Notes: generated by a model not told the origin, from the letters alone. Counted from the first letter of the stretch, positions 2,792 to 37,365 are shown. The stretch is DNA of 43,711 nt from an uncultured Lentisphaeraceae bacterium (GCA_964480555.1 CAYZQL010000002.1:1-43711), one strand, 5' to 3'. Program-made: numbers and translations.

Positions 2792-4342
2792 ATGAAATCC
2801 ACCGTTCTGTGCGGGAAGCCCGCGTGGAGGTTTTTTTTTGTGGCGTTTGCCGCGTGTTTGGCGGCGTGCGCTTGGGGTGAGTCGGCGACGGCCATTCCGT
2901 CCGAGGCCCATGTCTGGTTCGGGACGATTGACAGCGATTTCAACACCGCCGGCAACTGGAAGATCGGTCAAGACGCGGCGACGCTGCCGCCCGACAAAGA
3001 CACGATGGTCGCCTTTACCAACATCTCGGGCAAGGTGACGTTTTCCGGCGATGCCGCGGTGTCGAACGTGTGGGTGTCGAATGGCAGTCCGGTTTTCGAT
3101 CTGCAGGGGCGCTCGTTGAACGTGCAAAGATGCATTTATCTTTGTACCGTGCTTTCTTTTAAATATCCGACCGTTACGTTCACGAACGGCGTTGTAAACA
3201 GCGGATCGAATTTTCAGGTCAACTACGGACCCGCTGATACTGCATGGTTTTACGGCAAGGCTGTTGTGTCGGGTCCGGGCACCGAATTGAACGTGGGCGG
3301 CGCGACCTATCTCCAAGGCCGCGGAACGAGTATTACCGTCCAGAACGGGGCTTTGTTTTCCTCGGCAGGCATCGTCGACGTCAGTTCAAAGGCCGAAGGG
3401 ACCACGTTCGGTATACGCGACAACGGTTCGACGGCAAATTTTACGCATGGCTTTTCGATCGGCGGCAACAATGCTGTATTGAAGATTTCCGACGGCGCGG
3501 TGCTGAACGTTTCGGGGATCTGCTATACCAGTTATGGGAATCGCAACAGCATCGGACGCGATGGCGCGAAGAACGGTCTGGTCGTTGACAACGCGACCGT
3601 CAATTACGGTGTCGCGTCCACGGCGAATCTCAATATCGGCGACACGGACAACGCGACCATCACCGGTGATAACGCGCTGATCGTCACCAATAACGGCGCA
3701 TTCAACATGCTTACGGCCAACGACATCCGCTGCGGGGTCTCGATCGGTCAGAATGCCCAAATCAAAGGCGGCCGGATCGTGGCCACGGACGGCGGGAAGA
3801 TCGCCAGCAACGGCAGTATCCAGCTCGGCGTCGGGGCGAACAATCCGTGCGGCGGACATCTGCTGGCGGCGGATGACGGGACGATCACCGCGACGTATCT
3901 GCAGACGGGCAACAAAGCGTTGAGCAGCAACAGCCTGGTGCGTATTTCCGGAAAGCGGGGTAAGATCCTGCTCACCCATTCGACCAGTCCGTGCCAGCTC
4001 AATTCCGCGGCGACGCTTGAGTTCCGCATTCCCGAAGACGGTTTTGACGCGGTTCCGCTTCAGGCCCCGAATGGAGCGGTGACCAAGCCGATTGACGGTA
4101 CCCTCGCGCCGATCAAGCTCACGATCAACGCTCAGGCTTTCGGCAAGAAAAACCCCTCCCGTTCGATTACCCTTGTCGCGGCGGGCGCGGATTCGACAAC
4201 GGCATTCACCGTATTGACGAACAATCTCTCGTTTATCGACACGGATGACAGGTTCCATGGAAAGTTGATTTTTGTGGATGGCGGAAAGAAATTGGTTTAC
4301 ACCTCTCCCGCACGTCCGGGGTTGACGGTCAGTCTCCGGTAA
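2792..4342 (+). CDS. Secreted (possibly lipoprotein) beta-helical repeat protein A, T5SS/PEP-CTERM-associated-repeat-like, with a short C-terminal GLTVSLR tail
   Basis: I prefer the ATG at 2792 (AGAGAGAGG lies 9 nt upstream) over the listed GTG at 2735. The signal peptide is MKSTVLCGKPAWRFFFVAFAACLAAC, with a lipobox-like LAAC. After the signal comes FNTAGNWKIG, then degenerate G/N/V-rich rungs (NGALFSSAGIVDVS, DGAVLNVSGICYTS, NATVNYGVASTANLNIG, TNNGAFNMLTAND). The C-terminus is KLVYTSPARPGLTVSLR. Confidence 0.75.
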   Translation: MKSTVLCGKPAWRFFFVAFAACLAACAWGESATAIPSEAHVWFGTIDSDFNTAGNWKIGQDAATLPPDKDTMVAFTNISGKVTFSGDAAVSNVWVSNGSPVFDLQGRSLNVQRCIYLCTVLSFKYPTVTFTNGVVNSGSNFQVNYGPADTAWFYGKAVVSGPGTELNVGGATYLQGRGTSITVQNGALFSSAGIVDVSSKAEGTTFGIRDNGSTANFTHGFSIGGNNAVLKISDGAVLNVSGICYTSYGNRNSIGRDGAKNGLVVDNATVNYGVASTANLNIGDTDNATITGDNALIVTNNGAFNMLTANDIRCGVSIGQNAQIKGGRIVATDGGKIASNGSIQLGVGANNPCGGHLLAADDGTITATYLQTGNKALSSNSLVRISGKRGKILLTHSTSPCQLNSAATLEFRIPEDGFDAVPLQAPNGAVTKPIDGTLAPIKLTINAQAFGKKNPSRSITLVAAGADSTTAFTVLTNNLSFIDTDDRFHGKLIFVDGGKKLVYTSPARPGLTVSLR

Positions 4343-4358
4343 GAGGGGTACTCGTCGA

Positions 4359-6974
4359 ATGAAAACCGAAATGGTTTTGTTGGCCGCGATGGCGGCGCTG
4401 GCGGGGAATGCGGAGACGGGGGGCCGGCACACCGTCTTCGCGCATTATATGACGTGTTTCGGACTCTCGGTGGACGGCTACAAGCGCGAAATGATGCTGG
4501 CGCAGCAGTACGGCGTGGACGGCTGGGCGCTCAACTGCGGCAACTGGAAGAAACAGGATCCGAAGACCGGGGAATGGAAAGCGCATGAGGGGTACGCGGG
4601 GAGCGCCGCGAAGATCCATCAGGCGGCGAAGGAACTCGGGACGGACTTCAAGCTCTTCTTCTCGCCGGACGGTTCGCTTGCGACCTACACGAACGGTTTT
4701 CACGCGTCGATGCTGCTGGACTATCTGGGGCATCCCAACCAGTTCAAGTACGACGGCAAGCCGTTCTTTTCCGGGTGGGGCGGCGGCAATTTCAAGAACG
4801 CGAAGTACGATTTCGTCCGCAAGGACTTCCGCGCGCGCGGCATCGGGGAGATCTGCCTCGTCCCCGAACTCGGCCCGACGCGCAATGTGATGTACGCGAC
4901 GAAAGACCTCGTCGCGAATAGCGTCTTCCGCGATCCCGAGTTCAATTGCGACGGCGAATTCGTCTTCGGCTGCGACAACACGAGTCGTGAACTCACGGAA
5001 TTCCTCTCCAACTCGCGCTACGCCGCGTTGAAGGCCGGGAAGCTCTTCATGGCGGGGCCGTGCCCGGCCTATAACAGCTCAAACCTGCGCGACTACCACG
5101 GTCTCGCCGGTTACGCGAGCGAATGGGCGGCGATCTGCTCGGACCAGCCGGAACTCATCGAAGTGGTCACCTGGAACGACTACGCCGAGGATTCGGGGCT
5201 CATGCCCGGCGGCGTGGACTTCCGCCCCGCCTTCATCGGGAACCGCAATTCGCTCCAGCGCGACGAAGCGTTTCTCGATCTGACGGCGTACTACGCGGCG
5301 GCTTACAAGTCCGGCGGCGTCTGCCAGCCGATAACGCAGGACAAAATCTACACCGCATACCGGACGCGTCCCAAGTCGATGACGCGCGTGTACAAGCCCG
5401 ACCCCGAACAGGGCGAACCCCGCTGGATCGACACGCGGGACACCTATCTGCAGATACACGACGACGTGAGGGACAACGTCTACGCGACCGTGGCGCTCAC
5501 CGCGCCCGCCAAGGTGACGATCCGCCAGAAGAAGGGCTTTTTCGGCGGCGAGACCGTTACGAAGGCGCTGCCGGCGGGCATTCACACGCTCGAAGCGCCG
5601 ATGGTGAAAGGCGCGACGCCGGAGTTCATCGTCGAGCGCGGCGGCGAAACGCTCATCGAAGTTGTCGGCCGGCGCATGATCCAGGAGAAGGAAACGGAAC
5701 GCAACTCGCACGCGCTCGGTTACGACGGCATCCACCGTGTCTGGACCGGCGGCAGCGTCGCCGGAAAGCCCGTCTGCACGTTCGAGGCGAAGGACGGCAG
5801 GACGGAATGGAAACTTCCCGAGGACTTCAAGTGCGGTTCGTACAATTTCCGCGTGCGTTATTCGAACGACGAAAACGAGGAGTCCCGCTACACGCTCTAC
5901 GTGGACGTCCCATGGATGGATCCGAAGGCCGAGCGCTTCATGCCGGTCATGATCCCGCTTTACCTTCCCCCGACCCGCGGCGCGGTGAAGGAAGAGGGGT
6001 TCCTCTTCACTGTCACGCCGGGCGCAACGGGCATCCGCATCGTCAAGGAGGATGTGAAGGGGAAGGTCTACTGTTGGAACAACGGCAAGCGGTATCTCTC
6101 GACGTTCGACTATTCGGACTACGGCACGGCGAAGATCGAGTCCGTCGCGCTCGTTCCGAACGAGATCGCGAAGAGGGGCGAACCGCCGAAACCGTATCCC
6201 GAGACGGTCGCGATCCCGGGAGGAATATTCACGATGGCGGCGAAGGCCGTGGAGGCGGACGAAGGCAAACCGCGCGAGGTCGAGATCTCGCCGTTCCTGA
6301 TGGGCAAGTACGAGGTGACGAACCGCGAGTTCGAGGAATTCATGCCCGAACACGCCTCGCACCGCACGGAGATCTCCTGGCGCGACCGCGATCCGGCTGT
6401 CTACGTCGCGTGGCAGGAAGCGGCCGAATACTGCAACTGGCTTTCGGCGAAGGAAGGTCTCGCGCCCGCGTACGGCGTCACGAACGATTTCAAGCTCGTG
6501 AAGGGGGCGAAGGGGTACCGGCTGCCGACCGAGGCCGAATGGGAATACGTCGCCACCGGCCGCGGCGAGAACCGCGTCTATCCGTGGGGTGACGAAAAGC
6601 CGACGTACGATCTCTGCAACTGCGCGCCGGAATCCGTCACGCTGCAGCAGGAAAACCTCACGCGACCCGCGCGCGAACTCAAAACCGCGCCCGTCGGGAG
6701 CTATCCGAAGGGCGTTTCGCGCGACGGCGTACACGATCTCGCCGGCAACGTCTGCGAGTGGTGTGCGGACCGTTACCACTACGACTACTGGCCGGAAGGC
6801 CAGGACCCCGTGGACGAAACGCCGCCCCGATCCGGCCGCCAGAATTTCCGTTCCATCCGCGGCGGCAGTTTCGGCTACTACGGTATGAGCCAGCGCGGTT
6901 GCGACCGCGAATTCAATTCGCCGCGCTACCAGGGGTACATCTACATCGGGTTCCGCGTGGTGAAACCGCTTTGA
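4359..6974 (+). CDS. Secreted GH71-like (alpha-1,3-glucanase family) glycoside hydrolase fused to a C-terminal FGE-sulfatase-fold domain
   Basis: The signal peptide is MKTEMVLLAAMAALAGNA. GH71-type strings are VFAHYMTCF, YGVDGWALNCGNW and IEVVTWNDYAEDSG. From about 6190 the sequence is FGE-fold: MGKYEVTNREFEEFM, YRLPTEAEWEYVATG, VHDLAGNVCEWCADRY, RGGSF, IGFRVVKPL. Confidence 0.85.
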   Translation: MKTEMVLLAAMAALAGNAETGGRHTVFAHYMTCFGLSVDGYKREMMLAQQYGVDGWALNCGNWKKQDPKTGEWKAHEGYAGSAAKIHQAAKELGTDFKLFFSPDGSLATYTNGFHASMLLDYLGHPNQFKYDGKPFFSGWGGGNFKNAKYDFVRKDFRARGIGEICLVPELGPTRNVMYATKDLVANSVFRDPEFNCDGEFVFGCDNTSRELTEFLSNSRYAALKAGKLFMAGPCPAYNSSNLRDYHGLAGYASEWAAICSDQPELIEVVTWNDYAEDSGLMPGGVDFRPAFIGNRNSLQRDEAFLDLTAYYAAAYKSGGVCQPITQDKIYTAYRTRPKSMTRVYKPDPEQGEPRWIDTRDTYLQIHDDVRDNVYATVALTAPAKVTIRQKKGFFGGETVTKALPAGIHTLEAPMVKGATPEFIVERGGETLIEVVGRRMIQEKETERNSHALGYDGIHRVWTGGSVAGKPVCTFEAKDGRTEWKLPEDFKCGSYNFRVRYSNDENEESRYTLYVDVPWMDPKAERFMPVMIPLYLPPTRGAVKEEGFLFTVTPGATGIRIVKEDVKGKVYCWNNGKRYLSTFDYSDYGTAKIESVALVPNEIAKRGEPPKPYPETVAIPGGIFTMAAKAVEADEGKPREVEISPFLMGKYEVTNREFEEFMPEHASHRTEISWRDRDPAVYVAWQEAAEYCNWLSAKEGLAPAYGVTNDFKLVKGAKGYRLPTEAEWEYVATGRGENRVYPWGDEKPTYDLCNCAPESVTLQQENLTRPARELKTAPVGSYPKGVSRDGVHDLAGNVCEWCADRYHYDYWPEGQDPVDETPPRSGRQNFRSIRGGSFGYYGMSQRGCDREFNSPRYQGYIYIGFRVVKPL

Positions 6975-7005
6975 GGACCGAACAACGACAAGAGGAGTGC
7001 GTCAA

Positions 7006-9225
7006 ATGAATACGCTGAGGTCGGCCGTGACGATGAAATGTATTACGGCGGTGACGGTCGCGGCGGCGGTTTTCGCCGCGTTCGCGGGCGAAAAGAGGGA
7101 AGTCAAGGTCTACGCGCACTTCATGGGGTGCTGGCCTGCGTTCGGGTGCGACGGACAGGACGAAGTGCTGAAAAACGTCCTGTACGGTACGAATGCCTAC
7201 AACGACTGCGCGAATCTCGGCGGACGCATCGAGAACCTGCCGCTCGTTCCGCAGAATTACAAAGCCGAGACGATCGACACGGCGAAGACGGAGATCCGGC
7301 GCGCGATCCGCGCCGGCATTGACGGGTTCGCGTTCGACGCGTGGGCGGGCGACAAGTCGCCGCAGACGCTCGACGTCTACTTCAAAGCGGCGGAGGAGCT
7401 TAAAGCCGATTTCGGTCTCACGATCTGCTTCGATCCGTCCTGCCACGGCGCGAAGTGGATCCAGGGCGGGGAGATGTGGGAACGGTACGTTTCCTCCGCG
7501 AAATGGGTGCTCAGGCATCTGGACTCGCCGAACCTCGCGCGTTTCCACGGCAAACCGCTCTTCTTCGGCTATTATTCGCGCGGCATCGTCAAACGCGTGG
7601 ACGGGGAATCCGCCGCCGACTGGCGCAAACGCATCCGCGGGGAATGGGAGAAGTGGCGTAAGGCGCTTCCCTGCGAAGTGTACCTGCACGGCAGCATCGA
7701 GGACTACGTCGACTGGAAGCGGATCGACAAAAACGACTTCGTTGCGATCGCGAAGGATTGCGCCGCGACGTACGACACGGTGGGCGCGTTCCTCGGCCAT
7801 GACAACGATTGGGCCAACAAGGGCGATCTCTGGAAACTCGTCAAGGAGGCCGGCTGCGGCTGGAGCCAGCCGCTCTTTTCGCAGTACAGCAACAAGGCTG
7901 GCGGCATCATCACGGACGCGGGGCTCGATTATCTGCACCGCAACTGGAAGTACGCGATCGAACGCGGTTCGGAGCTGCTGCAGTTCGTCACCTGGAACGA
8001 CTACGGGGAAGAGACGATCCTCGCGCCGGCCTATGGCTCGAACTACACGGTGACGCGTGTGAACAAGTATTATTCCGACTGGCTCAAGGCCGGACAGCCC
8101 CCGAAGGTCGAGAAGGATGAAATCCACGTGGCGTTCCGACGCGTGACCGCGGACGCGCTCGCGTTTCCGTTCCATTCCCGCCGCGTGAAGCTGCCGACCG
8201 CACTGGAAGTGATCACGTTCCTCACCGAGCCGGGAACGGTCTGTGTGGACGACTACGGCGAATACAAGGCGCCGGCGGGCATGTTCTCGAAGAAGTTTGA
8301 GCAGAGGTCCGGAAAGATTTCCGTCACGGTGAAACGTCCCGTCTGGATTTTTTTCGCGAAGACCGTCTGTTCGATGACCGCGCCGGAGGAGATCAGCGAC
8401 AAGCGCTGGCGCGAGGACCAGACGATGGCGACGTGGAGCTCCACCTACGCCGAGGAATGGGCGATAGACTTCCCCGGCGTCAAGCCGCTTCGCTATTCCG
8501 AAAACGGCGATCTGGACGGCGACGGACTTCCCAACTGGTTCGAGATGGTCTATTTCGGAAAGTTCCCGTACATGGAAACGGCGTCGTGCGCGGATCCGAA
8601 CGCCGACCCGGATGGTGACGGGTTCACAAACCTGCAGGAATACCGGAACGAAACCGATCCCAACAAGCCCGATACGCCCTACACACCGGGATTCGTCTGG
8701 AGCCTCGCCGATTTCAAGGCGCTTCAGTTCGTCTCCAATCCCGAACGTGACACCAAGGGCCGCTACGTGTGGCGCAGCGAGTATCAGTACGGCGAAAAGG
8801 ACCACACGTACGAGCCGGGGAGTGCGTTCACGGAAATCTGGTCCGGCGGCGGCAGCCTGAACCGCCGCTCATTCCATGTCTACGAACCCAACCGGCTCGG
8901 CGGCTGCGGGTTCGATACGGGTGTCAGCTTCGAGGACCGTGCGGGCGGCACGGCGGAAATCCGAGTTTGCCGGGACAGTCCCGTGGCCATCGCCTGGATC
9001 GCGCCGGTCGACTGCACGGTGGACGTCGCGGTCGACTGCGCGACCAGGGAGAAGCGGGCGAAGTTCAAGACGTGGCTTGTCAAGGACGATCAGGTGCTCG
9101 GCGAAACCGCCGCGAAGAAGGTCGCCGTGAAGAAGGGCGACGTCATCCGTTTCGTCACCCGGGCCGGTTCCCCCGGACCGGGCGACTTCCTCACCGTGAA
9201 GTCCTTCACCGTGACCCATTTGTGA
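7006..9225 (+). CDS. Secreted GH71-like glycoside hydrolase with thrombospondin-type-3-like Ca-binding repeats and a C-terminal domain of unknown function
   Basis: I prefer the ATG at 7006 (AGAGGAG lies 8 nt upstream) over the listed GTG at 6997. The signal peptide is MNTLRSAVTMKCITAVTVAAAVFAAFA. GH71-type strings are VYAHFMGCW, AGIDGFAFDAWAG and LQFVTWNDYGEETILAP. The Asp-rich repeats are ENGDLDGDGLPNWFE and DPNADPDGDGFTNLQEYRNETDPNKPD (about 8500-8672). Confidence 0.85.
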   Translation: MNTLRSAVTMKCITAVTVAAAVFAAFAGEKREVKVYAHFMGCWPAFGCDGQDEVLKNVLYGTNAYNDCANLGGRIENLPLVPQNYKAETIDTAKTEIRRAIRAGIDGFAFDAWAGDKSPQTLDVYFKAAEELKADFGLTICFDPSCHGAKWIQGGEMWERYVSSAKWVLRHLDSPNLARFHGKPLFFGYYSRGIVKRVDGESAADWRKRIRGEWEKWRKALPCEVYLHGSIEDYVDWKRIDKNDFVAIAKDCAATYDTVGAFLGHDNDWANKGDLWKLVKEAGCGWSQPLFSQYSNKAGGIITDAGLDYLHRNWKYAIERGSELLQFVTWNDYGEETILAPAYGSNYTVTRVNKYYSDWLKAGQPPKVEKDEIHVAFRRVTADALAFPFHSRRVKLPTALEVITFLTEPGTVCVDDYGEYKAPAGMFSKKFEQRSGKISVTVKRPVWIFFAKTVCSMTAPEEISDKRWREDQTMATWSSTYAEEWAIDFPGVKPLRYSENGDLDGDGLPNWFEMVYFGKFPYMETASCADPNADPDGDGFTNLQEYRNETDPNKPDTPYTPGFVWSLADFKALQFVSNPERDTKGRYVWRSEYQYGEKDHTYEPGSAFTEIWSGGGSLNRRSFHVYEPNRLGGCGFDTGVSFEDRAGGTAEIRVCRDSPVAIAWIAPVDCTVDVAVDCATREKRAKFKTWLVKDDQVLGETAAKKVAVKKGDVIRFVTRAGSPGPGDFLTVKSFTVTHL

Positions 9226-9266
9226 TATAACTCACGAGGGATTTCTCATTACTAAGGAGCCGATAG

Positions 9267-10784
9267 ATGAAAAAAACGTTGTTGGGTTTGGCAGCCGTTC
9301 TCGCGTTTTTCTACGCACATGCCGAAAACTATTACTGGAAATCCGCTGCGGACGGATACTTCGACGATGCCGCGAACTGGAACCTGGGGGCCGCGGGGGC
9401 GGGCGGCGCGGCCGCGAACGCGCCGGGCGAGGGCGACAAGGCGAAATTCTGCAAGGGAACGTACACCGTGGCTTTCCGGCAGAACACGAAACTCGATTCG
9501 TTCTATCCCGAAAACACCGACAACAACCAGGAGATGCGTATTCTCGCGGAACTTGCAGGCCATACGCTCGTCGTGACGAACGTGCTCTCCGTCACGGCTG
9601 ACAAAAGCCACCCGAACGCCTGGTTGACGTTCACGAACGGAACCGTCGCCTGTGAGAAAGGCATCTCTGTGAGCGCAAACGGCAGCACCGCGTTTCGCGC
9701 GAACATGATCTTCGACAGCGCATACGCCGTGGCGACCGGCCAACTCAACGTGGCCGGTCTGAATCCTTCGTTTGTCCTGCGGAACGGCGCCGCGCTCAAC
9801 GCCGGTTCGCTCTACATGAACACGATCAAGACCAATGCGCTCATGCGCGTGACCGGCAAGGACACGGTCCTGAAGATCAGCGGGGAGTTCAATCAATACG
9901 GGACCGGCGACATTTTGGTCGAAGACGGGGCTCTCCTCGACGTGGGTACCCACATATCCGTGAGAGGATACGCGTCCGACACCGCTGACGACTTCGGCGG
10001 CCGTTTGGTCGTGAACAACGCGTCTGTAACGAACCGCGGTCTCAGCAGTTACCTTAACATCGGCATAAACACGCTGCACGGAAACGTGGTCACGCTGACC
10101 AACAACGCGACCTGGCACGGCAACGGATACGCCACTCTCGGCGATTCCGTCAGCTGCAGCAACCGGCTTGAAATTTTGGACGGTTCCGTTCTGGATTTCG
10201 ACGGTTTCCAATACGGAACGAGCAGAACATGCGACGGTCTGTATGTCGGCAAGGCGACTACGTCCCGCGAGAACGTCCTCTACGTCAACAACGGGACCTA
10301 CAGCGCGCGTTTCCTGTGCCTCGGATGCAATACCACGTCGAGCACCGACTGCAACAGCAACAACTGGATCCATGTGGCCGGCACAAAACCGCTCGTGAAA
10401 ACCATCGCGCAACACATCAACGGTTACAGTCTGTTTCTTTACTCCGGCGCCGGTATCCGTTTCGACATGGGCAAGGACGGATACGAGAACGTGCCGATTC
10501 AAGTCAACGGTACGTTCCGGAGCTACCATGCGACTTCGGAGACGTTCGCCAATGTGTCGAACAAACTCGTCGTCGCTGCGAACCCCTTCGACAAGGCGCA
10601 TCCGAAACAGAAGCTCACGCTCATCACGACGAAAAACGATTCCACCGCGGCGTTGCAGGAACTGATCGACAACTGCACGTTCGAGGGAGCGGCCAATCCG
10701 GGTTCGCTCGCGATTGAAAACTCCGGTAAGGCGCTCGTCTACACCGCGCCCACGATTCGCGGGCTGTCCGTTGTTATCCGCTAA
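9267..10784 (+). CDS. Secreted beta-helical repeat protein B (paralog of 2792-4342) with a C-terminal GLSVVIR tail
   Basis: AAGGAG lies 7 nt upstream of the ATG. The signal peptide is MKKTLLGLAAVLAFFYAHA. The N-terminal motif is ENYYWKSAADGYFDDAANWNLG, followed by repeated rungs (VVTNVLSVTAD, VLRNGAALNAGSLYMN, VVNNASVTNRGLSSYLNIG, LEILDGSVLDF). The C-terminus is KALVYTAPTIRGLSVVIR. Confidence 0.8.
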   Translation: MKKTLLGLAAVLAFFYAHAENYYWKSAADGYFDDAANWNLGAAGAGGAAANAPGEGDKAKFCKGTYTVAFRQNTKLDSFYPENTDNNQEMRILAELAGHTLVVTNVLSVTADKSHPNAWLTFTNGTVACEKGISVSANGSTAFRANMIFDSAYAVATGQLNVAGLNPSFVLRNGAALNAGSLYMNTIKTNALMRVTGKDTVLKISGEFNQYGTGDILVEDGALLDVGTHISVRGYASDTADDFGGRLVVNNASVTNRGLSSYLNIGINTLHGNVVTLTNNATWHGNGYATLGDSVSCSNRLEILDGSVLDFDGFQYGTSRTCDGLYVGKATTSRENVLYVNNGTYSARFLCLGCNTTSSTDCNSNNWIHVAGTKPLVKTIAQHINGYSLFLYSGAGIRFDMGKDGYENVPIQVNGTFRSYHATSETFANVSNKLVVAANPFDKAHPKQKLTLITTKNDSTAALQELIDNCTFEGAANPGSLAIENSGKALVYTAPTIRGLSVVIR

Positions 10785-10799
10785 AACGGAGAAATCGTC

Positions 10800-12158: not shown

Positions 12159-12372
12159 AATGCAATTGATGCAGCGGGAAAGTGTCTGTCTGATGACAAA
12201 CGTTTTTGTTTCCGCGCTGGCGGCACTATCGCTGGCGGCAAATTGGATGAGCGGTCGCTCCACGGCACGGCCAGATTCATATGCATGGCGAAGCCCGTGA
12301 GGGCCTGCCCCTGCAGCAGAAGCAGGCCGCCGAGCCAAAGCGCCCGTTTCATTGTTTGTCGCGTTCAGCCGA

Positions 12373-13917: not shown

Positions 13918-13947
13918 TCCCCCGTTTGATTTTTTCGCCGTGCGGGC

Positions 13948-17493: not shown

Positions 17494-17502
17494 GTCGTTT
17501 TT

Positions 17503-20970: not shown

Positions 20971-20974
20971 GTTT

Positions 20975-23062: not shown

Positions 23063-23099
23063 GCTTTTTCTCCTTTTAATAAAAGCCGCGTTTTACGGC

Positions 23100-24707: not shown

Positions 24708-25237
24708 ATCTGTTCCATCCGCATTGTTTTTTCCACACACCCGTGCAGCAGGTTCCGCAGCCGGTAAAGCATGGAGACCACCGAGGCGGACGAATGGCGA
24801 AACTGCTCCGTCAATTCCCGCACCGTCTTGCGCTCTCCGTATTTCGCCGTCAGATAGGCGCGCTGATGACCGGTCAGCTTCTTCAGGCAAGATTCCAAGG
24901 CGTCCAGCATCATGTCCGAGTCCGCCTGATCCGTCTGCAGTTCCTCGGCCATGGCGTTCACCACCGCCTCGCTGAAAAACACCCGTTCGCGCGACTTCAG
25001 CGTCCGGTACTTGCGCACCTGATACCACGCGAGCGTTTTGGCCCACGGCAGAAAGGGGCGTGACGCGTCGTAGGTCTCGGCCTTCGCCCAGAGATCGACG
25101 TTCGTCTCTTGGAGCACATCCGCCGCGTCGTGCGCGTTGCCGACCAGCGACGTGACAAAAACACGCAGCTCAAGCTGGGCTTGAGTCAAGTTGCGGATAA
25201 ACGCTTCGGAGACCGGTTTGCACGCTTCGGCTGCCAT
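24704..25237 (-). CDS. ECF-type RNA polymerase sigma factor (sigma-70 family, Sig-70_gvs1-like)
   Basis: The protein is 177 aa. Region 2 is AHDAADVLQETNVDLWAKAETYDASRPFLPWAKTLAWYQVRKY. Region 4 is LTGHQRAYLTAKYGERKTVRELTEQFRHSSASVVSMLYRLRNLLHGCV. Its stop overlaps the anti-sigma start (ATGA at 24704-24707). Confidence 0.9.
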   Translation of the reverse strand: MAAEACKPVSEAFIRNLTQAQLELRVFVTSLVGNAHDAADVLQETNVDLWAKAETYDASRPFLPWAKTLAWYQVRKYRTLKSRERVFFSEAVVNAMAEELQTDQADSDMMLDALESCLKKLTGHQRAYLTAKYGERKTVRELTEQFRHSSASVVSMLYRLRNLLHGCVEKTMRMEQI

Positions 25238-25305
25238 GTCTGCGTCCTTTGTTCACTTATTATAAACAAAGGTGCGCAGAATATAGCGAAATATTTTTCG
25301 ATCGT
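25238..25305 (-). promoter_or_regulatory. AT-rich intergenic spacer upstream of the ECF sigma gene, with two small hairpins and a TATAAT hexamer
   Basis: Read on the minus strand the spacer is taaacgatCGAAAaataTTTCGctatattctgcgcaCCTTTGTTtataataagtgAACAAAGGacgcagacATG. There is an 8-bp perfect inverted repeat at 25246-25253 / 25265-25272. A TATAAT (plus coordinates 25259-25264) sits in its loop, 22 nt before the ATG. I see no convincing -35 element. The function is open: promoter, operator, or terminator of the hexosaminidase gene. Confidence 0.3.
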
Positions 25306-27222: not shown

Positions 27223-27255
27223 AAAAACTCCGTGTGTGTTCAGGCGACAGGTTAT

Positions 27256-27322
27256 GGTAGGGACGCCTCCCCGAGGCGTCCGCGGAGACACGCCTCGGAC
27301 GGCTCGGGGAGCCGTCCCTACC
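27256..27322 (-). repeat. Nested-palindrome (REP-like) intergenic element, copy 1
   Basis: The sequence is GGTAGGGACGCCTCCCCGAGGCGTCCGC-ggagacacgcctc-GGACGGCTCGGGGAGCCGTCCCTACC. It contains two 9-bp-stem hairpins (27261-27281 and 27297-27317) closed by GGTAG/CTACC. It starts 14 nt downstream of the LamG-1 stop and ends 33 nt upstream of the GH20 start. A second copy lies at 41413-41489. Confidence 0.6.
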
Positions 27323-27335
27323 GGATAATGACCGT

Positions 27336-30300
27336 TCAGCGCATCAACATCAAGGTTCCCCAACGGTTATAACTGGTGAAGCTTTCGTTCTCCGCCTGCG
27401 TCATGTAGGCGGCGCGGATCCAGTCCGCGCCGCGCGGCACGGTTTCGAGGCGCACCTCGTCCAGCACGCCCGCGAAGGTCTTGGTCGCGTCCGCGTCGCT
27501 GCCCGCATGGCCGAAAGTGAGCGCCTGATTGGTCGGGAGGCCGGCGGCCAGCGCGTCGGGCACCGTGGTCAGCGGCTGTCCGTTGCCGTAGGCCTGCACG
27601 CTCCCCGAGGGATTGACCGCCACGGCGTAGTGGGTCCAGGCTCCGGTGGAGGGCGCGACCAGCGACGCCGCGTCCGCGGCCGCCACCTTCAGCTTGCCGG
27701 CCGCGTTGTTCAGCGTCGCGTACGCCACCGCGCCCGTGCCCGCCAGCACGACCGCCTGGTCCGCGACCGGCGCCTGCTGCTTCGCCCAGAACGAGAAGGT
27801 CTGCGGCCCGGCGGCCGGTTGCGCCCGGGTCCGCACGCGTTGCGCGACCTCCGACCACGCCAGCCCCTCGCCCGCCAGCGCCGCGGCCGCCGCGGGCGCG
27901 GCCTGACCGAGCAGCGCCGCGCCGTTCTGCGCGGCCGAGGCGTCGGCCAGCAGCAGGCGGTCCGTGCCCGTGAAGTGCCACACGCCGCCGAACCCGCCCG
28001 ACCAGACGCGCGCGTTGGACGTGTCCACCGGAATCGCGTAGCGCGCGGACAGATAGGCCTCGATGCGGCGGCGCTCGGTGTCCGAGATGAGCCGGTCATA
28101 GACCAGCACCTCGGCGAGGTCGCCGTCCAGCGGCAGGTCCAGTGCGCCGTCCGAGGTGCCCGCGCCGAAAATGATCACGCTGTCGTTGACGCCGGTTAGG
28201 CCCCAGAGCCCGGCAGGCGCGGTGCTCTGGGTCAGGTTGACGCCGTTGACGTAGAAGCGCGAGGACAGCTCGTCGCACAGCATCGTCGCGATGACCGGCA
28301 CGTTGGTCTGGCACGGCAGAAGCTGGGACACCACGCCGTTGGCACGACGCGTAATCAAACCGTTGGTCACGCTGAGGCGGCTGCTGCTGTTGGCACCCTG
28401 CATGACGACCCGTTCGCTGGCATCGGCCGCGCGCGTGCTGAATACCGCGACTGCGGAATAGGCCTTGCCGATGGGCGAGGCAAGACTCTTCAGGCTGTCG
28501 TACTGGCCCGCGACAGCATCGAAGCGCAGCGCGGGCTTGCTGTTGAAGGAGGCGCCGACTTTCTCGGGCATACGGTTGGTGACGGGCTGCGTGGCATTCA
28601 TCCCGGCGGTGTCGGTCTGATTCTCGCACTTGGAGACGCGCGGGGTCGTGCCGTCCAGGATATCGGCGACCATGTAGTCGCCGCGCAACCACTGGCGCAG
28701 GCCGACCGCAGGCACACGGTGGGCCGAGAGGGCGTCGTATTTCAGCGCCAGATAGCGCTCGACCTGTTGCCGTTCCGTGTATGACAGGGCGCGGTCGTAA
28801 GCGATCACCTCCAGCACGTCGCCGGCCCAGCCGTCGCCGCTGGTGCCGCTGGCGCCCAAGCCGAGAATGTTGGGGCCCAAGTGGACGGCAACCGAAGGAT
28901 AGGCGAAGCCGTTGAGGCTGGCCTGGGTATTGGTGCCGTCGCCGATTATCCCCGCCACGAACGGCCTGCCGACAGGAGGGCGGAGATCGGGGGTTGCGAG
29001 CGTCGTATAGCCGCCCGGCCTGGCCGTAAAGAGAAAGAACTTGCCGGCACCTTCGATGGCGACGCCGCAGTTGTAGCCGGCCGAGCCTTGGACGATGCGC
29101 CGCCAGTTGTACCCTCCCGAGTTCATGAGAAACGTTCCGGCCACGAAATAGGAGTACGGCGTGTTGGTCGCGCTCCAGCCCGTGACCATGCCGTCCTTGG
29201 GAACGATCGCCTCGAAGCGCACAGCGGGCAGGCCGTTCACCGCGTTGGCCATCCACACCGGCTGCATGGCGGCATTGCCTTGCGTCGCGTTGCGCCCGTT
29301 GCCGGACTGGTCGGCCCACGTCGAGACGTAGCCCGAGCCATTGGTGGCGACGCCCGCGCCCGCGTGCAGCCACAGGCCGCAGTTCGGCAGATCGGTCGGC
29401 ACGAACGGGTTCGCGTCAGCCGCCCGGGCGGGGTTCTTCCAGTAGGCCGTGATCTGCGTGTTCCGCACGAGGGCCGGCACCTGCACCCACACATGCGACT
29501 CGCCGTTGGTGTTCCAGGTCTCGGTCTCGTGCTGAAGCACGGCTCCGTCCTCGCCGGTGAAGAGCAGGTCCGCGCCGCCCGCCAGGCAGTCGCGGTAGCG
29601 GAAGCGACCGTTGCCGCACCCGTCCCAAAGCTTGACCAGCGCGGGGAAGTTGGTGAGCGCCGAAGAGCCGGCGTACCCGCCGAAGCGGATCGGCATGGAG
29701 CGCTGCCACGTGCCCAGCGCCGCCGGAGGCTCCTTGTAAAGAACGATGGCGTTGCCCTCGCGCACCGCCCGGTACGGGCAGGGCGCCTCGATCTCCCAGC
29801 CGGAGAGGTCGGTCGCGCCGGTCATGGAGGTCGCCTCGATGATGCGGAGCGAATCGGGGCAGGCCGCGGCCGAGGCGGCCACAAGCTCGACGGTCATGAA
29901 GCCGGGCACTGCGAGAGCGGCATTGACCTTGACGCTGTCGTTGGTGACGGCGTTCACTTGGCAGCGCAGGCGAACGCCGCTGAGGCCAGGCGCCGTGCCG
30001 TAGGTGAGGCAGCCGAAGCCGTCGTTGGCCGAGGGGTCGCCGGGCGCGATGACCGCGCCCGGATATTGCAGGACCGCCCCTGCCGAGGTCACCAGCCCCG
30101 TGCCGCCTAGAGTGCCGCCCGGCATGACCCTGACCTGGCCGGCGCCGAGGCAGCCGGCCGAGGTGCCGTTGGCCAAGGCCGTGCCGCCCTCGATGGTGCA
30201 GGTGCCGGCGTAGGCGCTTGGCTGCGTGAAGGCCCAGACGCCACCCTTGACGGTGACGAACAGCGAGTTGGCGCCGCCGGGCGCGTTGGCGAGCGGCGTG

Positions 30301-31820
30301 TTCAGCGTGTTGACGCCCGCGGAGGTGCCGCCCAGCGAGAGGTAGGCGGGGCCCGCGCCGGGCGTGTCGGCAGCGGCCCACGCGCCGTTGAAGGTCAGGC
30401 CCGCGCCAGCGGGGCTGTTATTCTCGACCGAGCAAAGACGGACAAAGGAGAACGGCCGGTCCGTGGCGGCGGCTTCGGCGCCCACATAGCGGAATCCGCC
30501 GCTGAAGCTGAAACGGCGGTTGCCGAGCAGCACAACGGCATCGTTGCCGGAGGCCGCGCCAAGCGAACTGGGCTGGCCCGCATTCGCCAGGCGCATGATT
30601 TCAGCGGTGCCGGTTTTCAGGACAACGGGGCCGGTGAAGGTGTTAGACGGGCAGGCGAGGGCGAGCGTGCCGGCGAAATCCAGACCCATGCCCAACATGA
30701 TTCCGCCTTCGCCCGAGAGCAGGCCAGAGAGCGTCAGACGCCTGGCCGTGAGCACAGAGAAGGTGTGCGTCCCAACGGGCAACGCGGTGTCCAAGCCCCA
30801 AGTCACCGCCGAAGCGGGGTTGCAGAAGAAGCCGTTGTTCAGGGTCACGGGGTTGCCGGAGAACTGCCAGGCTTGATCCCAGACCATGACACTGTCGAGC
30901 GTCAACCCGGTGAGGTCGTTGGTCGAGACCGTCCGGGCAATGCCATTAAAGGCGAGCATCGGCGCGGCGGGCATGGCCTGCTGCCAGTTGGCGCTGTCGC
31001 TCCAGAGGCCGCTCGACCCCGAACCGCTCCAGACCGGGCCGTCGAAGCCCTCGGCCGTCACGCCGTACCGTGCGGCCAGGTAATCCTCCACCTGCTGTCT
31101 TTCGGTTGTCGTCAGGGCGCGCTCGTAGGCGATCACCTCGGAGATCTGCGCTTCCCCCTCGTCATTGTAGCCGTCAACGCTGCCGATGCTCAGCCGGCCG
31201 GGCGGCATCTTGGCGGTGGGGTTGCCGGTGAGGTCGCGGCCGTTCACAAAAAAGAGCTGATTCGTCGTGGTGGTCACCGCCGAAAGCATGTAGGTGCGGT
31301 TGAAACGATATGCGGATTTTAGCCTCGTGATGTTTCCGCTTAATTCGCCGCTGCCGCCATGCGCGTAGAAGGTTCCGGGCGTGGAGGTTCCGAGGAACCA
31401 GTTCTTGTCGCGCGAGCCCAGAAGGCGGCGCCAAGTGATGCCGAGCTCGTTCCCGTCGAGCACCCGCGCCACAATATAGGTGGTGCAGGCGTTGGTGAGC
31501 GGGGTTCCGGTCAGCAGCCTTGCGTTGTACCCGTTGTTGTAGTTCCGCATGTCGAAATAGACGGTCGGAAGGCCGTTGGGCCCGCTTTCCTGATATAAGG
31601 GCTGACGGTTGACTTCGTTGGTCTGATACGCATGGTTGCCGCTGCCCGACAGATCGGTCCATTGCGACACCCGGCCCGCGCTGTTATTGGTCTGAATATT
31701 GGCCTCGCCTGCCTGCAGCCACATCACGCAGCCCGTCAGATTCGTAGGTTCGAAAGCCTCCGCATCTGGAGACCCAAGAACAGACGCTAAAAGGACCGAA
31801 AGCGTTATCATTCGTCTCAT
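27336..31820 (-). CDS. Giant secreted LamG / PATR beta-strand-repeat / DUF2341 surface protein 1 (about 1,494 aa) with a C-terminal GTLMLMR tail
   Basis: I prefer the ATG at 31820 (AAGGAA upstream), giving the signal peptide MRRMITLSVLLASVLGSPDAEA. The first LamG-type domain begins FEPTNLTGCVMWLQAG...VSQWTDLSGSGNHAYQ. PATR-like repeats include GGIMLGMGLDFAGTLALACPSNTFTGPVVLKTGTAEI. The DUF2341-like block is LTNFPALVKLWDGCGNGRFRYRDCLAGGADLLFTGEDGAVLQHETETWNTNGESHVWVQVPAL. Three more LamG domains follow, and the first three LamG domains each end in a linker like EVIAYDRALSYTERQQVERYLALKYD. Confidence 0.85.
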   Translation of the reverse strand: MRRMITLSVLLASVLGSPDAEAFEPTNLTGCVMWLQAGEANIQTNNSAGRVSQWTDLSGSGNHAYQTNEVNRQPLYQESGPNGLPTVYFDMRNYNNGYNARLLTGTPLTNACTTYIVARVLDGNELGITWRRLLGSRDKNWFLGTSTPGTFYAHGGSGELSGNITRLKSAYRFNRTYMLSAVTTTTNQLFFVNGRDLTGNPTAKMPPGRLSIGSVDGYNDEGEAQISEVIAYERALTTTERQQVEDYLAARYGVTAEGFDGPVWSGSGSSGLWSDSANWQQAMPAAPMLAFNGIARTVSTNDLTGLTLDSVMVWDQAWQFSGNPVTLNNGFFCNPASAVTWGLDTALPVGTHTFSVLTARRLTLSGLLSGEGGIMLGMGLDFAGTLALACPSNTFTGPVVLKTGTAEIMRLANAGQPSSLGAASGNDAVVLLGNRRFSFSGGFRYVGAEAAATDRPFSFVRLCSVENNSPAGAGLTFNGAWAAADTPGAGPAYLSLGGTSAGVNTLNTPLANAPGGANSLFVTVKGGVWAFTQPSAYAGTCTIEGGTALANGTSAGCLGAGQVRVMPGGTLGGTGLVTSAGAVLQYPGAVIAPGDPSANDGFGCLTYGTAPGLSGVRLRCQVNAVTNDSVKVNAALAVPGFMTVELVAASAAACPDSLRIIEATSMTGATDLSGWEIEAPCPYRAVREGNAIVLYKEPPAALGTWQRSMPIRFGGYAGSSALTNFPALVKLWDGCGNGRFRYRDCLAGGADLLFTGEDGAVLQHETETWNTNGESHVWVQVPALVRNTQITAYWKNPARAADANPFVPTDLPNCGLWLHAGAGVATNGSGYVSTWADQSGNGRNATQGNAAMQPVWMANAVNGLPAVRFEAIVPKDGMVTGWSATNTPYSYFVAGTFLMNSGGYNWRRIVQGSAGYNCGVAIEGAGKFFLFTARPGGYTTLATPDLRPPVGRPFVAGIIGDGTNTQASLNGFAYPSVAVHLGPNILGLGASGTSGDGWAGDVLEVIAYDRALSYTERQQVERYLALKYDALSAHRVPAVGLRQWLRGDYMVADILDGTTPRVSKCENQTDTAGMNATQPVTNRMPEKVGASFNSKPALRFDAVAGQYDSLKSLASPIGKAYSAVAVFSTRAADASERVVMQGANSSSRLSVTNGLITRRANGVVSQLLPCQTNVPVIATMLCDELSSRFYVNGVNLTQSTAPAGLWGLTGVNDSVIIFGAGTSDGALDLPLDGDLAEVLVYDRLISDTERRRIEAYLSARYAIPVDTSNARVWSGGFGGVWHFTGTDRLLLADASAAQNGAALLGQAAPAAAAALAGEGLAWSEVAQRVRTRAQPAAGPQTFSFWAKQQAPVADQAVVLAGTGAVAYATLNNAAGKLKVAAADAASLVAPSTGAWTHYAVAVNPSGSVQAYGNGQPLTTVPDALAAGLPTNQALTFGHAGSDADATKTFAGVLDEVRLETVPRGADWIRAAYMTQAENESFTSYNRWGTLMLMR
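27341..27992. repeat. 652-nt near-perfect direct repeat, copy 1 (3' end of the LamG-1 gene)
   Basis: By base-by-base comparison it is identical to 31967-32618 (offset 4626) except at 27974 (A) versus 32600 (G). The ORF track shows identical protein and identical shadow ORFs over both copies. Confidence 0.95.
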
Positions 31821-31961
31821 GATTGTATTCCTTAGGTGCCTTACAAACCAATACCAGCAACAAAAACACGTTGCCTCATACAACGGCAAGGGGTTTTGTG
31901 TCATAGACCTCTTCGTGTCCTCGGTGAACTTCGTGTGAGGATTTCGCCGGCGCGCGCACGC

Positions 31962-34900
31962 TCACTGCATCAACATCAAGGTTCCCCAACGGTTATAACT
32001 GGTGAAGCTTTCGTTCTCCGCCTGCGTCATGTAGGCGGCGCGGATCCAGTCCGCGCCGCGCGGCACGGTTTCGAGGCGCACCTCGTCCAGCACGCCCGCG
32101 AAGGTCTTGGTCGCGTCCGCGTCGCTGCCCGCATGGCCGAAAGTGAGCGCCTGATTGGTCGGGAGGCCGGCGGCCAGCGCGTCGGGCACCGTGGTCAGCG
32201 GCTGTCCGTTGCCGTAGGCCTGCACGCTCCCCGAGGGATTGACCGCCACGGCGTAGTGGGTCCAGGCTCCGGTGGAGGGCGCGACCAGCGACGCCGCGTC
32301 CGCGGCCGCCACCTTCAGCTTGCCGGCCGCGTTGTTCAGCGTCGCGTACGCCACCGCGCCCGTGCCCGCCAGCACGACCGCCTGGTCCGCGACCGGCGCC
32401 TGCTGCTTCGCCCAGAACGAGAAGGTCTGCGGCCCGGCGGCCGGTTGCGCCCGGGTCCGCACGCGTTGCGCGACCTCCGACCACGCCAGCCCCTCGCCCG
32501 CCAGCGCCGCGGCCGCCGCGGGCGCGGCCTGACCGAGCAGCGCCGCGCCGTTCTGCGCGGCCGAGGCGTCGGCCAGCAGCAGGCGGTCCGTGCCCGTGAG
32601 GTGCCACACGCCGCCGAATTCGGATGACCACACCGCGGGGTTCACCCGGGCCATGGGGATCGCGTAGCGCGCGGAGAGGTAGGCCTCGACGCGGCGGCGC
32701 TCGTTGTCCGAGATCAGCCGGTCATAGACCATCACCTCGGCGAGGTCGCCGTCCAGCGGCAGATTGAGTGCGCTGTCGCCGGTGCCCGCGCCGAGATAGA
32801 AGACACTGCTGCCGGCACCGACTTTCCAGAGTCCTACCGGCGCACCGCTCTGAGTCAGGTTGACGCCGTTGAGATAGAACCTGGATGTCTGCGCGTCACA
32901 GGTCATGACCGCGATGGCCGCCTGATTCGTCTGCGCCGGCGCGAACTGCGACACCACGCCGGAGGCCTGCCGCAGGATCAGCCCGTTGGTGACGCTGAGA
33001 CGGCTGGTGGCGCCGGCACCCTGCAGGACAACCCGTTCCGTCCCGTCGGACGCCCGCGGCGCGAAGACCGCCACCACGGAGTAGGTCGTGTCCAGCGCCA
33101 CCAAGGTGGCCTTCATGCTGTCGTACTCGCCCGCCACGGCGTCGAACCGCAGGACCGGCTTGCCGTTGAGCGCCCCGGCGATTTTTTCGGGCATACGGTT
33201 GGTGGTGCTTTGCAGGGCGTGAACGCTGTTCCCGTATTGCGTCTGGTTGTCCCAGCGTTTGACCCGGTTTACCGCGCCGTCGGCGACGTCGGCGACCGCG
33301 TCTTCGGAACGCAGCCACTGGACCAGGCCTGCGGAGGGCACCCGATGGGCGGAGCGCATGTCGTACTTCAGCGCGAGGTAGCGCTCCACCTGCCGCCGCT
33401 CCTCGAACCCCAGCGCGCGGCTGTAGACGATGACCTCGAAAATATGGCCCAGCCACGGGTTGCTGCTGACGCCGCCGTGACCCAGAATCAGCGTGCCGGG
33501 TCCGTGGTGCTTGGCGAGCGGCGTGAACCCGAAGCCGTTCAGCGTGAACTGCGTGTTCGTGCCGTCACCCAGGATCGCCGCCACGAACGGCACGCCGCCC
33601 ACGGGACGGATCCCCGTGTTCGCGATCGCATAAAATCCACTCCCGCCCGCACCGGTGGGGATGAAGGGGTAGAAATCCCCCCCCGACCCGTTCAGCTCGA
33701 CACCCCAGTTGTAATTGGCCGGGCCGGTCATGATCCGGTACCAGCTATACGTCGTGCTCTCCTGATAACTGGCAGTCACAAAAACCGAGTAGGTGCCGTT
33801 GCTGGTGCCCCAGGTCGTGGTCAACCCGTCTTTGTAGGCCCCCCCCTCGAAGCGCAGACCGGGCAGGCCGTTGACCACGTTGTTGGTCAGGCAGGGCTGA
33901 TACCGGGAATCGCTCCGCACGGCCTCATGCCCGTTGCCCGACTGGTCGGCCCAGCGCGAGACAAGCCCGGCGCCGTCGGCCGTCACACCCGCGCCGGCGT
34001 GCAGCCACATGGCGCAGCCCGTCAGGTCGGTCGGCAGGAAAGGATTCGCGTCCGTCGCGCGGGCCGGGTTTTTCCAGTGCGCGGTGATCTCGGTGTTGTG
34101 GACCAGCAGCGGCACCCGTACCCAGACGTGCGACTCGCCGTTGGTGTTCCAGGTTTCGATCTCGTGATCCAGCCACGCGCCCGCCTCATCGGTGAAGAGC
34201 AGGTCCGCCCCGTCGGCCAGGCAGTCGGCGTACCGGAAGCGGCCGTTGCCGCACCCGTCCCACAGTTTGATCAGCGCCGGGAAGTTGGTGAGTTCCGCAT
34301 GGCCGTCGTACCCGCTGAACCGCACCGGCATGGAGCGCTGCCACGCGGCCAAGTGCGGCGGCGGCTCTTTCACGAGCACCACGGCGTTGCCCTCCACCAC
34401 GGCGCGGTAGGCGCACGGCGCCTCGATGTCCCAGCCGGAGAGGTCCACGCTGCCGGTCAGGGAGACCGCCTTGACGATTGTGAGCCGGTCCGGGCACGCC
34501 TCTTCGGAATCGGCCTCGACGCGCACGGTCATGAAGCCGGGCGGCGACCAGGCGGTTTCGATGAGGATCAAGTCATTCGTCTGAGCCGTGGTCTGGCAGC
34601 GCAGCTCCATGCCGTTCAGCACCGGCGCGGCGGAGAAGGTCAGCGTGCCGATGCCGTCCTCCACGTCCGGATTGCCCGGAACCAGGACCGCCCCGGGCAT
34701 CAGGCTCAACGAGGCATAGCCGGCCAGCCGGCCCGTGCCGCCCAAAACGCCGCCCGCTTTGATCGTCACCGTACCCGCGCCCAGATAACCCGAGGTCGTG
34801 CCCCCGACGAGCACGCTGCCGCCCTCGACCGTCAGTCCTCCGGTGAACGTGTTTGCCGAGGAAAAGGCCCAGACGCCGCCGGTGATCTTCACAATCAGAC

Positions 34901-37327: not shown

Positions 37328-37365
37328 GACGAGCGCACTTTTTTTCGTCCCGCCACGCTTAACGG

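Follow-up and report, generated by a model that had tools for sequence, protein, structure and literature searches.

Short C-terminal signals of exported bacterial proteins have been described in several systems. PEP-CTERM signals with their exosortase, and the tripartite signals GlyGly-CTERM, MYXO-CTERM and LPXTG, are one such set (PMC1569441, PMC3237569, bioRxiv 10.1101/2023.06.07.544157). The beta-signal of outer-membrane proteins (OMPs) is recognised by BamA and BamD (eLife 2024 PMC10945584), and its bacterial consensus has been given as LGLGYRF, with a terminal aromatic residue (PMC10629564), and as ζ-x-G-x-x-[Ω/Φ]-x-[Ω/Φ] (bioRxiv 10.64898/2026.09.25.754295). In addition, soluble lectin-like proteins dock a short C-terminal peptide on strand 1 of BamA by beta-augmentation (bioRxiv 10.64898/2026.09.25.754295). 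Here we describe a seven-residue C-terminal tail that ends five exported, non-catalytic proteins (A to E) encoded in a 43,711-nucleotide stretch of DNA from an uncultured Lentisphaeraceae bacterium (GCA_964480555.1 CAYZQL010000002.1:1-43711), referred to below as the window.

About 170 relatives in Kiritimatiellia bear the tail, which is very probably a selected, functional C-terminal element of some kind. The Kiritimatiellia, an abundant group that has been little studied, break down complex and sulfated glycans in guts, rumen and sediments, and we know of no account of how their large non-catalytic binding proteins are placed on the cell surface. If the tail were a true tag, it would allow the surface proteome of the group to be listed from sequence and would provide a handle for partial phylogenetic profiling toward its partner machinery. 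Sorting or tethering would then depend, in a testable way, on a signal much shorter than any C-terminal sorting domain described in bacteria.

The tail in the window and its conservation

An earlier note, made from the sequence of the window, had pointed out a common ending on five repeat-rich secreted proteins. Translation of the window places all five tails where that note had put them:

4319..4339, plus strand: tail of A, GLTVSLR, followed by the stop codon TAA
10761..10781, plus strand: tail of B, GLSVVIR
20978..20998, minus strand: tail of C, GTTVMLQ
27339..27359, minus strand: tail of D, GTLMLMR, preceded by the conserved FTSYNRW
31965..31985, minus strand: tail of E, GTLMLMQ

The full endings, with the residue before the glycine, are PGLTVSLR, RGLSVVIR, PGTTVMLQ, WGTLMLMR and WGTLMLMQ. 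Over its six reading frames the whole window has 1526 stop-terminated frames, of which 5 end in the motif G-x5-[RQ] and 1521 do not. A looser regular expression (a glycine at -7, three or more strongly hydrophobic residues, terminal R or Q) matches the same 5 of 1526 frames, and it matches 3 of 4908 short, mostly non-coding frames in approximately 236 kb of related loci. The tail is a real, non-chance feature of the window. It is also restricted there to exported non-enzymes: the five bearers have a signal peptide, and neither the seven exported enzymes nor the cytoplasmic proteins of the window have it. The earlier note had treated the five proteins as separate instances. All of them do carry the tail, but they are not independent cases; A, B and C are paralogues, as are D and E, so the window holds two families rather than five independent events. 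The genes and their main features are as follows:

2792..4342, plus strand: gene A, 516 amino acids (aa), signal peptide, beta-helix type, directly upstream of the GH71-FGE gene (P0010 in the family hidden Markov model (HMM) search)
3872..4339, plus strand: C-terminal (CT) domain of A, family HMM, independent E-value (i-E) 5.9e-43, flush to the C-terminus
9267..10784, plus strand: gene B, 505 aa, signal peptide, beta-helix, placed after a GH71 gene
10269..10781, plus strand: CT domain of B, family HMM, i-E 9.9e-47
20975..23062, minus strand: gene C, 695 aa, signal peptide, beta-helix, downstream of an ECF sigma/FecR-like pair
20978..21418, minus strand: CT domain of C, family HMM, i-E 3.5e-16
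27336..31820, minus strand: gene D, 1494 aa, signal peptide, LamG/PATR-like, directly upstream of a GH20 gene
31962..36464, minus strand: gene E, 1500 aa, paralogue of D
27336..27973, minus strand: D copy of a near-identical tract of 638 nucleotides (nt), matching 31962-32599 of E apart from the final sense codon

A, B and C are distant paralogues (26-29% mutual identity) that have in common an unannotated CT domain of approximately 150 aa, whose family has no model in Pfam or NCBIfam. The string [KA][LI]V[YL]T and the N-terminal motif W..G...F....NW noticed earlier are present in all three translated proteins. The likeness to PATR and type V secretion (T5SS) repeats that was proposed for all five proteins applies to D and E only, and A, B and C match no Pfam or NCBIfam model, repeats included, at E<=0.01. 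D and E alone among the five match Laminin_G_3 (PF13385; 86.1 and 98.5 bits, respectively, gathering cut-off 27.6). The TIGR02601 repeat is above its cut-off of 19.85 in E (25.2 bits) and below it in D (18.5 bits), PF12951 (PATR) reaches 18.4 bits on E against a cut-off of 27, and DUF2341 matches both proteins weakly.

A profile of the CT domain, built from the last ~145 residues of A, B and C together with four B orthologues, was searched in 1.84 billion cluster representatives. Only 144 proteins match at E<=1e-3, and in these the domain is nearly always flush to the C-terminus. A crude signal-peptide test is passed by 80 of 96 full-length family members, the remainder being mostly mis-called starts. 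Profile searches with family alignments in genome contigs and in metagenome contigs found no related loci; related loci were gathered with a hand-built degenerate DNA pattern instead, which gave 15 GTDB loci. Fourteen of these are genuine family ends and one (L018, labelled Pirellula) is a chance match. One member, around position 2890 on the minus strand of L016, has a tail identical to that of P0004 in an open frame of just 79 aa, which points to a frameshift, pseudogene or assembly error.

Right alignment of 141 genuine CT-family members delimits the tail. Glycine occupies position -7 in 128 of them; position -4 is I, L, V, M or F and position -2 is V, I, L, F, Y or M in all 141, and positions -6, -5 and -3 are mainly hydrophobic with T, S and A tolerated. 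The last residue is R in 101 members, K in 13 and Q in 12 (126/141, or 89%), is F or Y in 6, and can also be E or D. Upstream of the tail is a conserved string, DG(K/T)xLVYTAP. Positions -10 to -8 hold almost no information, with R or K at -9 in 60 of the 141, and the linker between domain and tail is variable and rich in proline and basic residues. The refined CT-family consensus is ...LVYTAP-x3-G-[LTMF]-x-[ILVM]-x-[VILF]-[R>K,Q]-COOH. Among the four B orthologues (38-41% identity) the endings are GLMLILR, GLMIVVR, GSVIYIQ and GATIFVR. To judge from this alignment, the CT-family tail is a constrained, fixed-length element set off from the domain by a variable linker.

The tail is likewise kept among the relatives of D and E, in line with the orthologue conservation that the earlier idea implied. 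A full-length search with D finds 24 orthologues at 59-82% identity, and all 24 end FTSYN-x-[W/F]-G-[T/S/M]-h4-[R/Q/H], the terminal residue being R in 19, Q in 3 and H in 2, with Trp at -8 in 23. The hydrophobic residues swap conservatively (LMLM, LILM, LFMM, LIIV, VIIV and others), and the length and the G...[RQH] frame are constant. In all cases a strand such as LVYT, FTSY, IALY or LIIY lies 8-12 residues upstream, and the overall consensus is [R/K/P]-x-G-[LTMF]-x-[ILVM]-x-[VILF]-[R>K,Q]-COOH.

At the protein level D and E share 65% identity, and the DNA of their final 638 nt differs solely by two bases in the last sense codon, CGC (Arg) in D and CAG (Gln) in E. Because this tract matches except for its final codon while upstream protein identity is near 65%, the tract looks like the product of a recent gene conversion with its 3' boundary exactly at the last codon. 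The CT domain has no significant match in D or E with HMMER run with filters off, and the same null result rules out an internal copy of the domain, which the look of '...GNAIVLYKEPP...' had brought to mind.

Portability and possible roles of the tail

The tail also ends proteins in which the CT domain is not detectable. A 902-aa PATR protein (L026, 1194-3902; PF12951 47.1 bits, cut-off 27) ends ...AQSGTMIVIK, an 858-aa protein (L005, 4784-7360) ends ...HETDGCCIMIR, and a leucine-rich repeat (LRR) protein of the BspA-LRR/InlB-repeat type (L021, 3548-6628, minus strand) ends ...SPATYFILR, a variant without the glycine. A nine-position position-specific scoring matrix (PSSM) derived from CT-family tails only was used to score 2123 frames. 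The L026 tail scores 19.4 bits, the D/E-type tails 5.0-11.7 bits and the L005 tail 5.7 bits, all within the top 31 of the 2123 frames with three false positives interleaved; the LRR tail is lower, at 1.5 bits. Background frames reach the D/E level of 5 bits in approximately 3 of approximately 2090 cases. With roughly 200 real genes sampled, about 0.3 false positives would be expected and three independent extra contexts are observed. This supports, at the level of sequence, a module portable between unrelated C-terminal contexts, in a sample that is small and drawn from the neighbourhoods of family members. On greedy open reading frame (ORF) calls from the fetched loci, tail and signal peptide were compared by a Fisher test (p=0.04), a result discarded as unreliable: some loci are truncated, starts were mis-called, high-GC DNA yields spurious long frames, and gene B was lost from the table.

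Some other C-terminal endings were noticed as well. A signal-peptide GDPD phosphodiesterase (L005, 3705-4712, plus strand) has a low-complexity C-terminal extension ending ...TTQGGSRMLLH, a loose likeness (PSSM 2.5 bits) that could represent a degenerate tail, here borne by an enzyme. Two signal-peptide proteins of 803 aa with weak GH42/rhamnosidase-like matches (L007, 3226-5637, minus strand; L015, 3968-6379, plus strand) adjoin family members in two metagenome-assembled genomes (MAGs). They end ...GDGMSTTIFRYR and ...GDGMSTTIFRYQ, a different ending with the same R/Q alternation at the last position. P0188 and P0191, distant LamG homologues of D, end ...IQLKVYTPLP and ...GFQVYTPLQLNH; the VYTPL-type ending that they have in common may be a further unannotated C-terminal motif in another lineage.

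It is very unlikely that the tail is no signal at all, that is, the conserved last strand of one domain family whose likeness to the ends of D, E and the other proteins is a coincidence or a remnant of shared ancestry. In favour of this explanation, approximately 85% of the examples belong to the CT-domain family, A, B and C are paralogous and D and E gene-converted, and the 902-aa protein of L026 may hold a diverged CT-like region that the HMM missed. However, D and E lack the CT domain even with the HMMER filters off, and background frames attain their PSSM score as rarely as stated above. The linker before the glycine varies, the tail is fixed down to its exact length, the D/E orthologues exchange hydrophobic residues and retain length and frame, and the structural model of B leaves the tail out of the domain.

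That model (AlphaFold2; predicted local distance difference test (pLDDT) 85, predicted template modelling score (pTM) 0.87) is a right-handed beta-helix followed by a small alpha/beta domain. It has no secondary structure past residue 493, the end of the strand ALVYT, and pLDDT falls below 50 at residues 502-505. The modelled tail is thus unpacked, as would be expected of a peptide that meets its partner in trans, a hint that is weak, as it is for any low pLDDT at a terminus. Foldseek comparison of the model with the PDB returned generic beta-helix neighbours only, none at E<1e-3; the nearest folds, all non-significant, are autotransporter passengers (Hbp, EspC, pertactin, UpaB), PL6 lyases and beta-helix tailspikes. 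Neither the CT-domain profile nor B had a meaningful match in sequence searches of the PDB.

The unpacked tail of the monomer model would also fit a self-assembly strand, which would act by donor-strand exchange or by packing at a trimer interface, as in tailspikes and type V pili, and would build oligomers or fibres rather than sort proteins. The hydrophobicity of both faces of the tail suggests burial in protein, the nearest Foldseek folds (tailspikes and autotransporter passengers, non-significant as matches) often oligomerise, and the strand 8-12 residues upstream is compatible with a terminal hairpin. This role is nevertheless unlikely, since the unrelated domains with the same tail (CT, LamG and LRR) would each need a matching acceptor groove.

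The flanks of the tail raise another alternative, a minimal interfacial membrane anchor in which the five hydrophobic residues would dip into a leaflet of the inner or outer membrane and keep the protein there peripherally, with no protein partner. Its basic and aromatic flanks (KKR-G-LMLIL-R, NRW-G-TLMLM-R), the R or K at -9 in 60/141 members, the terminal R or K, the Trp at -8 in 23 of the 24 D/E orthologues and the uniformly hydrophobic core would suit such an anchor. Five to six residues are too short for a bilayer, however, the last position can also be Q, H or even E or D, and the fixed glycine at -7 with the strict register of -4 and -2 suggests specific recognition over bulk hydrophobicity. 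We regard an anchor of this kind as quite unlikely.

The reading that we prefer, at slightly less than an even chance, is that the tail is a Kiritimatiellia-specific, strand-type docking, tethering or sorting tag that binds a shared envelope partner. The sorting or tethering role, binding as a beta-strand and the identity of the partner are what we infer. The proteins that bear the tail are predicted to be Sec-exported and non-catalytic, of the beta-helix, LamG/PATR and LRR types, and their genes lie beside those of glycan- or phosphodiester-degrading enzymes. The tail would act as a free, strand-forming docking peptide and would add by beta-augmentation to the shared partner, which might be an outer-membrane beta-barrel, an Omp85-type protein or a dedicated anchor. 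Through docking, these binding proteins would be tethered at the cell surface or passed on to it, a role that would parallel those of PEP-CTERM, the C-terminal domains (CTDs) of the type IX secretion system (T9SS) and autotransporter barrels on related passenger proteins elsewhere.

Several observations weigh against a docking or sorting tag. Most examples of the tail are in one domain family, and those outside it are few and were met beside family members. Low pLDDT at a protein terminus counts only weakly, and the AlphaFold2 model of the C-terminal 250 aa of D is too poor (pLDDT 48) to be informative on the tail. No candidate sorting enzyme or partner recurs in approximately 330 kb of neighbourhoods. 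The tail is without the terminal aromatic residue of beta-signals, its last residue being R, K or Q in 126/141 CT-family members and R, Q or H in all 24 D/E orthologues. In the CT-family alignment the tail is hydrophobic on both faces, unlike an amphipathic barrel strand. Finally, an AlgE-like barrel (Alginate_exp; L016, 3883-5271, plus strand), which has a CT-family gene on the other strand approximately 1 kb away and is the only beta-barrel in any fetched neighbourhood, ends classically in ...WLRFELNGKF.

The last three points also bear on the kind of tag. Because the AlgE-like barrel ends ...RFELNGKF, the tail is not simply the ordinary beta-signal of the lineage; and because a beta-signal pattern without the aromatic residue, with both faces hydrophobic, occurs alongside a classical barrel ending, a docking or tethering tag is favoured over a simple beta-signal. 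A more specific form of the docking model is a split, 'barrel-in-trans' system of autotransport or tethering. Here the G-Φ5-R strand would dock barrel-less passengers (beta-helix, LamG and LRR proteins) on an outer-membrane (OM) barrel or Omp85 protein, replace PEP-CTERM/exosortase and T9SS in the phylum and organise the surface glycan-binding apparatus of polysaccharide utilisation loci (PULs). In this full form we consider the model unlikely.

Gene neighbourhoods and taxonomic distribution

The window is a glycan-utilisation neighbourhood. It encodes two AraC/periplasmic-binding regulators, a GH71-FGE protein, a GH71 enzyme, two Pel-like beta-helix proteins, two GH42-like proteins, an ECF sigma factor with a FecR-like anti-sigma factor, and a GH20 enzyme. 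The enzymes that adjoin A, B and D are exported and have no tail:

4359..6974, plus strand: GH71 + FGE-sulfatase fusion, signal peptide, without the tail
6997..9225, plus strand: GH71 enzyme, signal peptide, without the tail
25306..27222, minus strand: GH20 hexosaminidase, signal peptide, without the tail; the D-type/GH20 pairing is seen again in L022

Tail-bearing beta-helix genes adjoin GH71 genes twice in the window and also in L002, L003, L012, L013 and L016. D-type genes are directly upstream of GH20 in the window and in L022 and are near GH18 in L024, L005, L008 and L017 have LamG-type family members amid phosphodiesterase genes, and a single 164-kb contig has at least four tail-bearing genes. 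By analogy, the GH71/beta-helix and GH20/LamG-PATR pairings suggest a counterpart, of the Planctomycetes-Verrucomicrobia-Chlamydiae (PVC) type, of the surface glycan-binding proteins of Bacteroides PULs.

The fusion of a GH71 catalytic domain with a C-terminal FGE-sulfatase (SUMF1-like) domain (4359-6974, plus strand) is an unusual combination that recurs beside tail-bearing beta-helix genes in other Kiritimatiellia contigs (L003, 2528-5149, and probably L012, 730-3399, minus strand). The ECF sigma factor (Sigma70_r2, 24704-25237) and the FecR-like anti-sigma factor (together 23100-25237, minus strand) lie immediately upstream of C and the two GH42-like genes, at the place where a Bacteroides PUL would have a SusC-like transducer. 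A conserved link between C-type genes and such a pair is ruled out, as the C-like P0057 (L027) is without this neighbour. The spacer between the D stop and the GH20 start holds an inverted repeat (27256-27322; 30-nt arms, 90% complementary, 7-nt loop) that has no counterpart after E, A, B or C and may be a terminator or attenuator or an element like a repetitive extragenic palindrome (REP). Beyond the glycan locus are unrelated SNF2/SWIM and PPDK-like genes. The start codon of a SWIM zinc-finger gene overlaps the stop of the gene before it, which encodes a SNF2-family helicase with DUF3670 (37366-41387, plus strand); on the other strand, an ORF of 1137 aa (36853-40266) is without a Pfam match and is probably spurious.

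All named sources of the tail are MAGs of Kiritimatiellae/Kiritimatiellia (rumen or gut, digesters, sediment) or MAGs labelled uncultured Verrucomicrobia/Lentisphaerae. Three human-sample GTDB bins with near-identical CT-family genes have other labels: Azospirillum sp. 51_20 (L009), 'bacterium' (L013) and Lachnospira hominis (L019). Their contigs have 50-53% GC and come from one human-sample series. Because the family gene of L013 is followed by a GH71 gene, the three contigs are probably mis-binned PVC-type sequence.

Comparison with known C-terminal signals

Neither the tail nor the CT domain is matched by any Pfam or NCBIfam model, even when C-terminal pieces are searched alone at E<=10. 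This bears out the claim that the five proteins have no recognised sorting domain: profile HMMs detect no barrel, PEP-CTERM (TIGR02595) or T9SS CTD. A literature search for a sorting signal or PEP-CTERM in Kiritimatiell* found nothing relevant. As far as these tools can tell, tail and CT domain are unannotated and undescribed.

The tail resembles PEP-CTERM and the related tripartite signals in its general design. Both are short, lineage-restricted motifs at the extreme C-terminus of many Sec-exported, often repeat-rich surface proteins that belong to unrelated families within a genome, and both have the same order of elements, from a small signature (TAPxxxG in the tail) through a hydrophobic stretch to a basic end. 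The tail differs in having no PEP, GG or Cys signature and a single terminal R, K or Q in place of a basic cluster. There is no PEP motif in the last 40 residues of A to E, and in the ~236 kb of related loci there is no true PEP-CTERM-like end, two matches to the regular expression being without a hydrophobic helix. The fetched neighbourhoods encode no exosortase (EpsH/Xrt). The transmembrane (TM) helix and Arg cluster of PEP-CTERM are both missing; since the hydrophobic stretch is five residues and not approximately 20, the tail cannot be a transmembrane helix. Read-through of the stop codon into a longer anchor is ruled out, as the next gene begins 17 nt past the A stop and the DNA downstream of D and E is unrelated. 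Covalent attachment through a terminal Lys as in Lpp is ruled out too, a terminal K being found in only 9%.

T9SS CTDs (PF18962/TIGR04183, Bacteroidota) likewise direct surface attachment, in their case of large secreted adhesins or glycan-binding proteins and of some enzymes, but they are folded beta-sandwiches of approximately 80 aa and the tail has seven residues. The T9SS CTD models have no match in A to E, and we know of no T9SS in this phylum. Autotransporters resemble the tail-bearing proteins in their right-handed beta-helix passengers, and PATR-type repeats occur in the 902-aa protein of L026 and, more weakly, in E. The autotransporter translocator is a C-terminal 12-strand beta-barrel, whereas A to E have no such domain (PF03797 or an equivalent) by Pfam, NCBIfam or the model of B. 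With no PEP motif, TM-length stretch, basic cluster, barrel or T9SS CTD, the tail falls outside these families on their defining features. As in donor-strand exchange (chaperone-usher, type V pili), a terminal strand unsatisfied in the monomer could complete the fold of a neighbour, but the tail proteins have no pilin fold, usher or chaperone.

The tail conforms to the beta-signal pattern of OMPs, with G at -7, Φ at -4 and -2, R or K at -9 in 60/141, and one extra terminal R, K or Q; that is, the glycine is followed by hydrophobic residues at i+3 and i+5 and is often preceded, two residues before, by a polar or basic one. It differs in that the in-between positions are hydrophobic too and that the proteins are not barrels (B is a beta-helix with an alpha/beta domain, and D and E are LamG/PATR proteins). 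The lectin-like bacteriocins of Pseudomonas provide a precedent for a soluble carbohydrate-binding protein with a beta-signal-like C-terminal peptide. It could be argued from this precedent that the tail proteins are toxins that target the apparatus for beta-barrel assembly (BAM), a carbohydrate-binding body with a beta-signal mimic that blocks the BamA of competitors. The architecture is similar, with a lectin-like body (LamG or beta-helix) and a short C-terminal G-x-x-Φ-x-Φ strand (bioRxiv 10.64898/2026.09.25.754295). The hypothesis is extremely improbable, however: several paralogues occur per contig, in conserved operon-like pairs with GH71, GH20 and phosphodiesterase genes and beside AraC/ECF regulators. 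The bacteriocins are defined by beta-lectin domains together with a C-terminal [Ω/Φ]-x-[Ω/Φ]-x-[Ω/H] peptide. No Pfam lectin model except LamG matches the five proteins, the tail is without the aromatic dyad and cap motif reported for the bacteriocins, and no immunity-like genes were noticed.

The tail is set apart from other short C-terminal signals by its seven residues, its lack of a transmembrane segment and its single basic or amide end. A tag that docks on an envelope partner would nonetheless find parallels among the distant homologues of D. One of these, P0199, ends in a textbook PEP-CTERM (...PEPATFALLAGLPALVLARRRRSR) at the position equivalent to the tail, and another, P0197, carries a T9SS CTD (PF18962) at the equivalent end. 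By analogy, these two endings are circumstantial support for an equivalent role of the tail.

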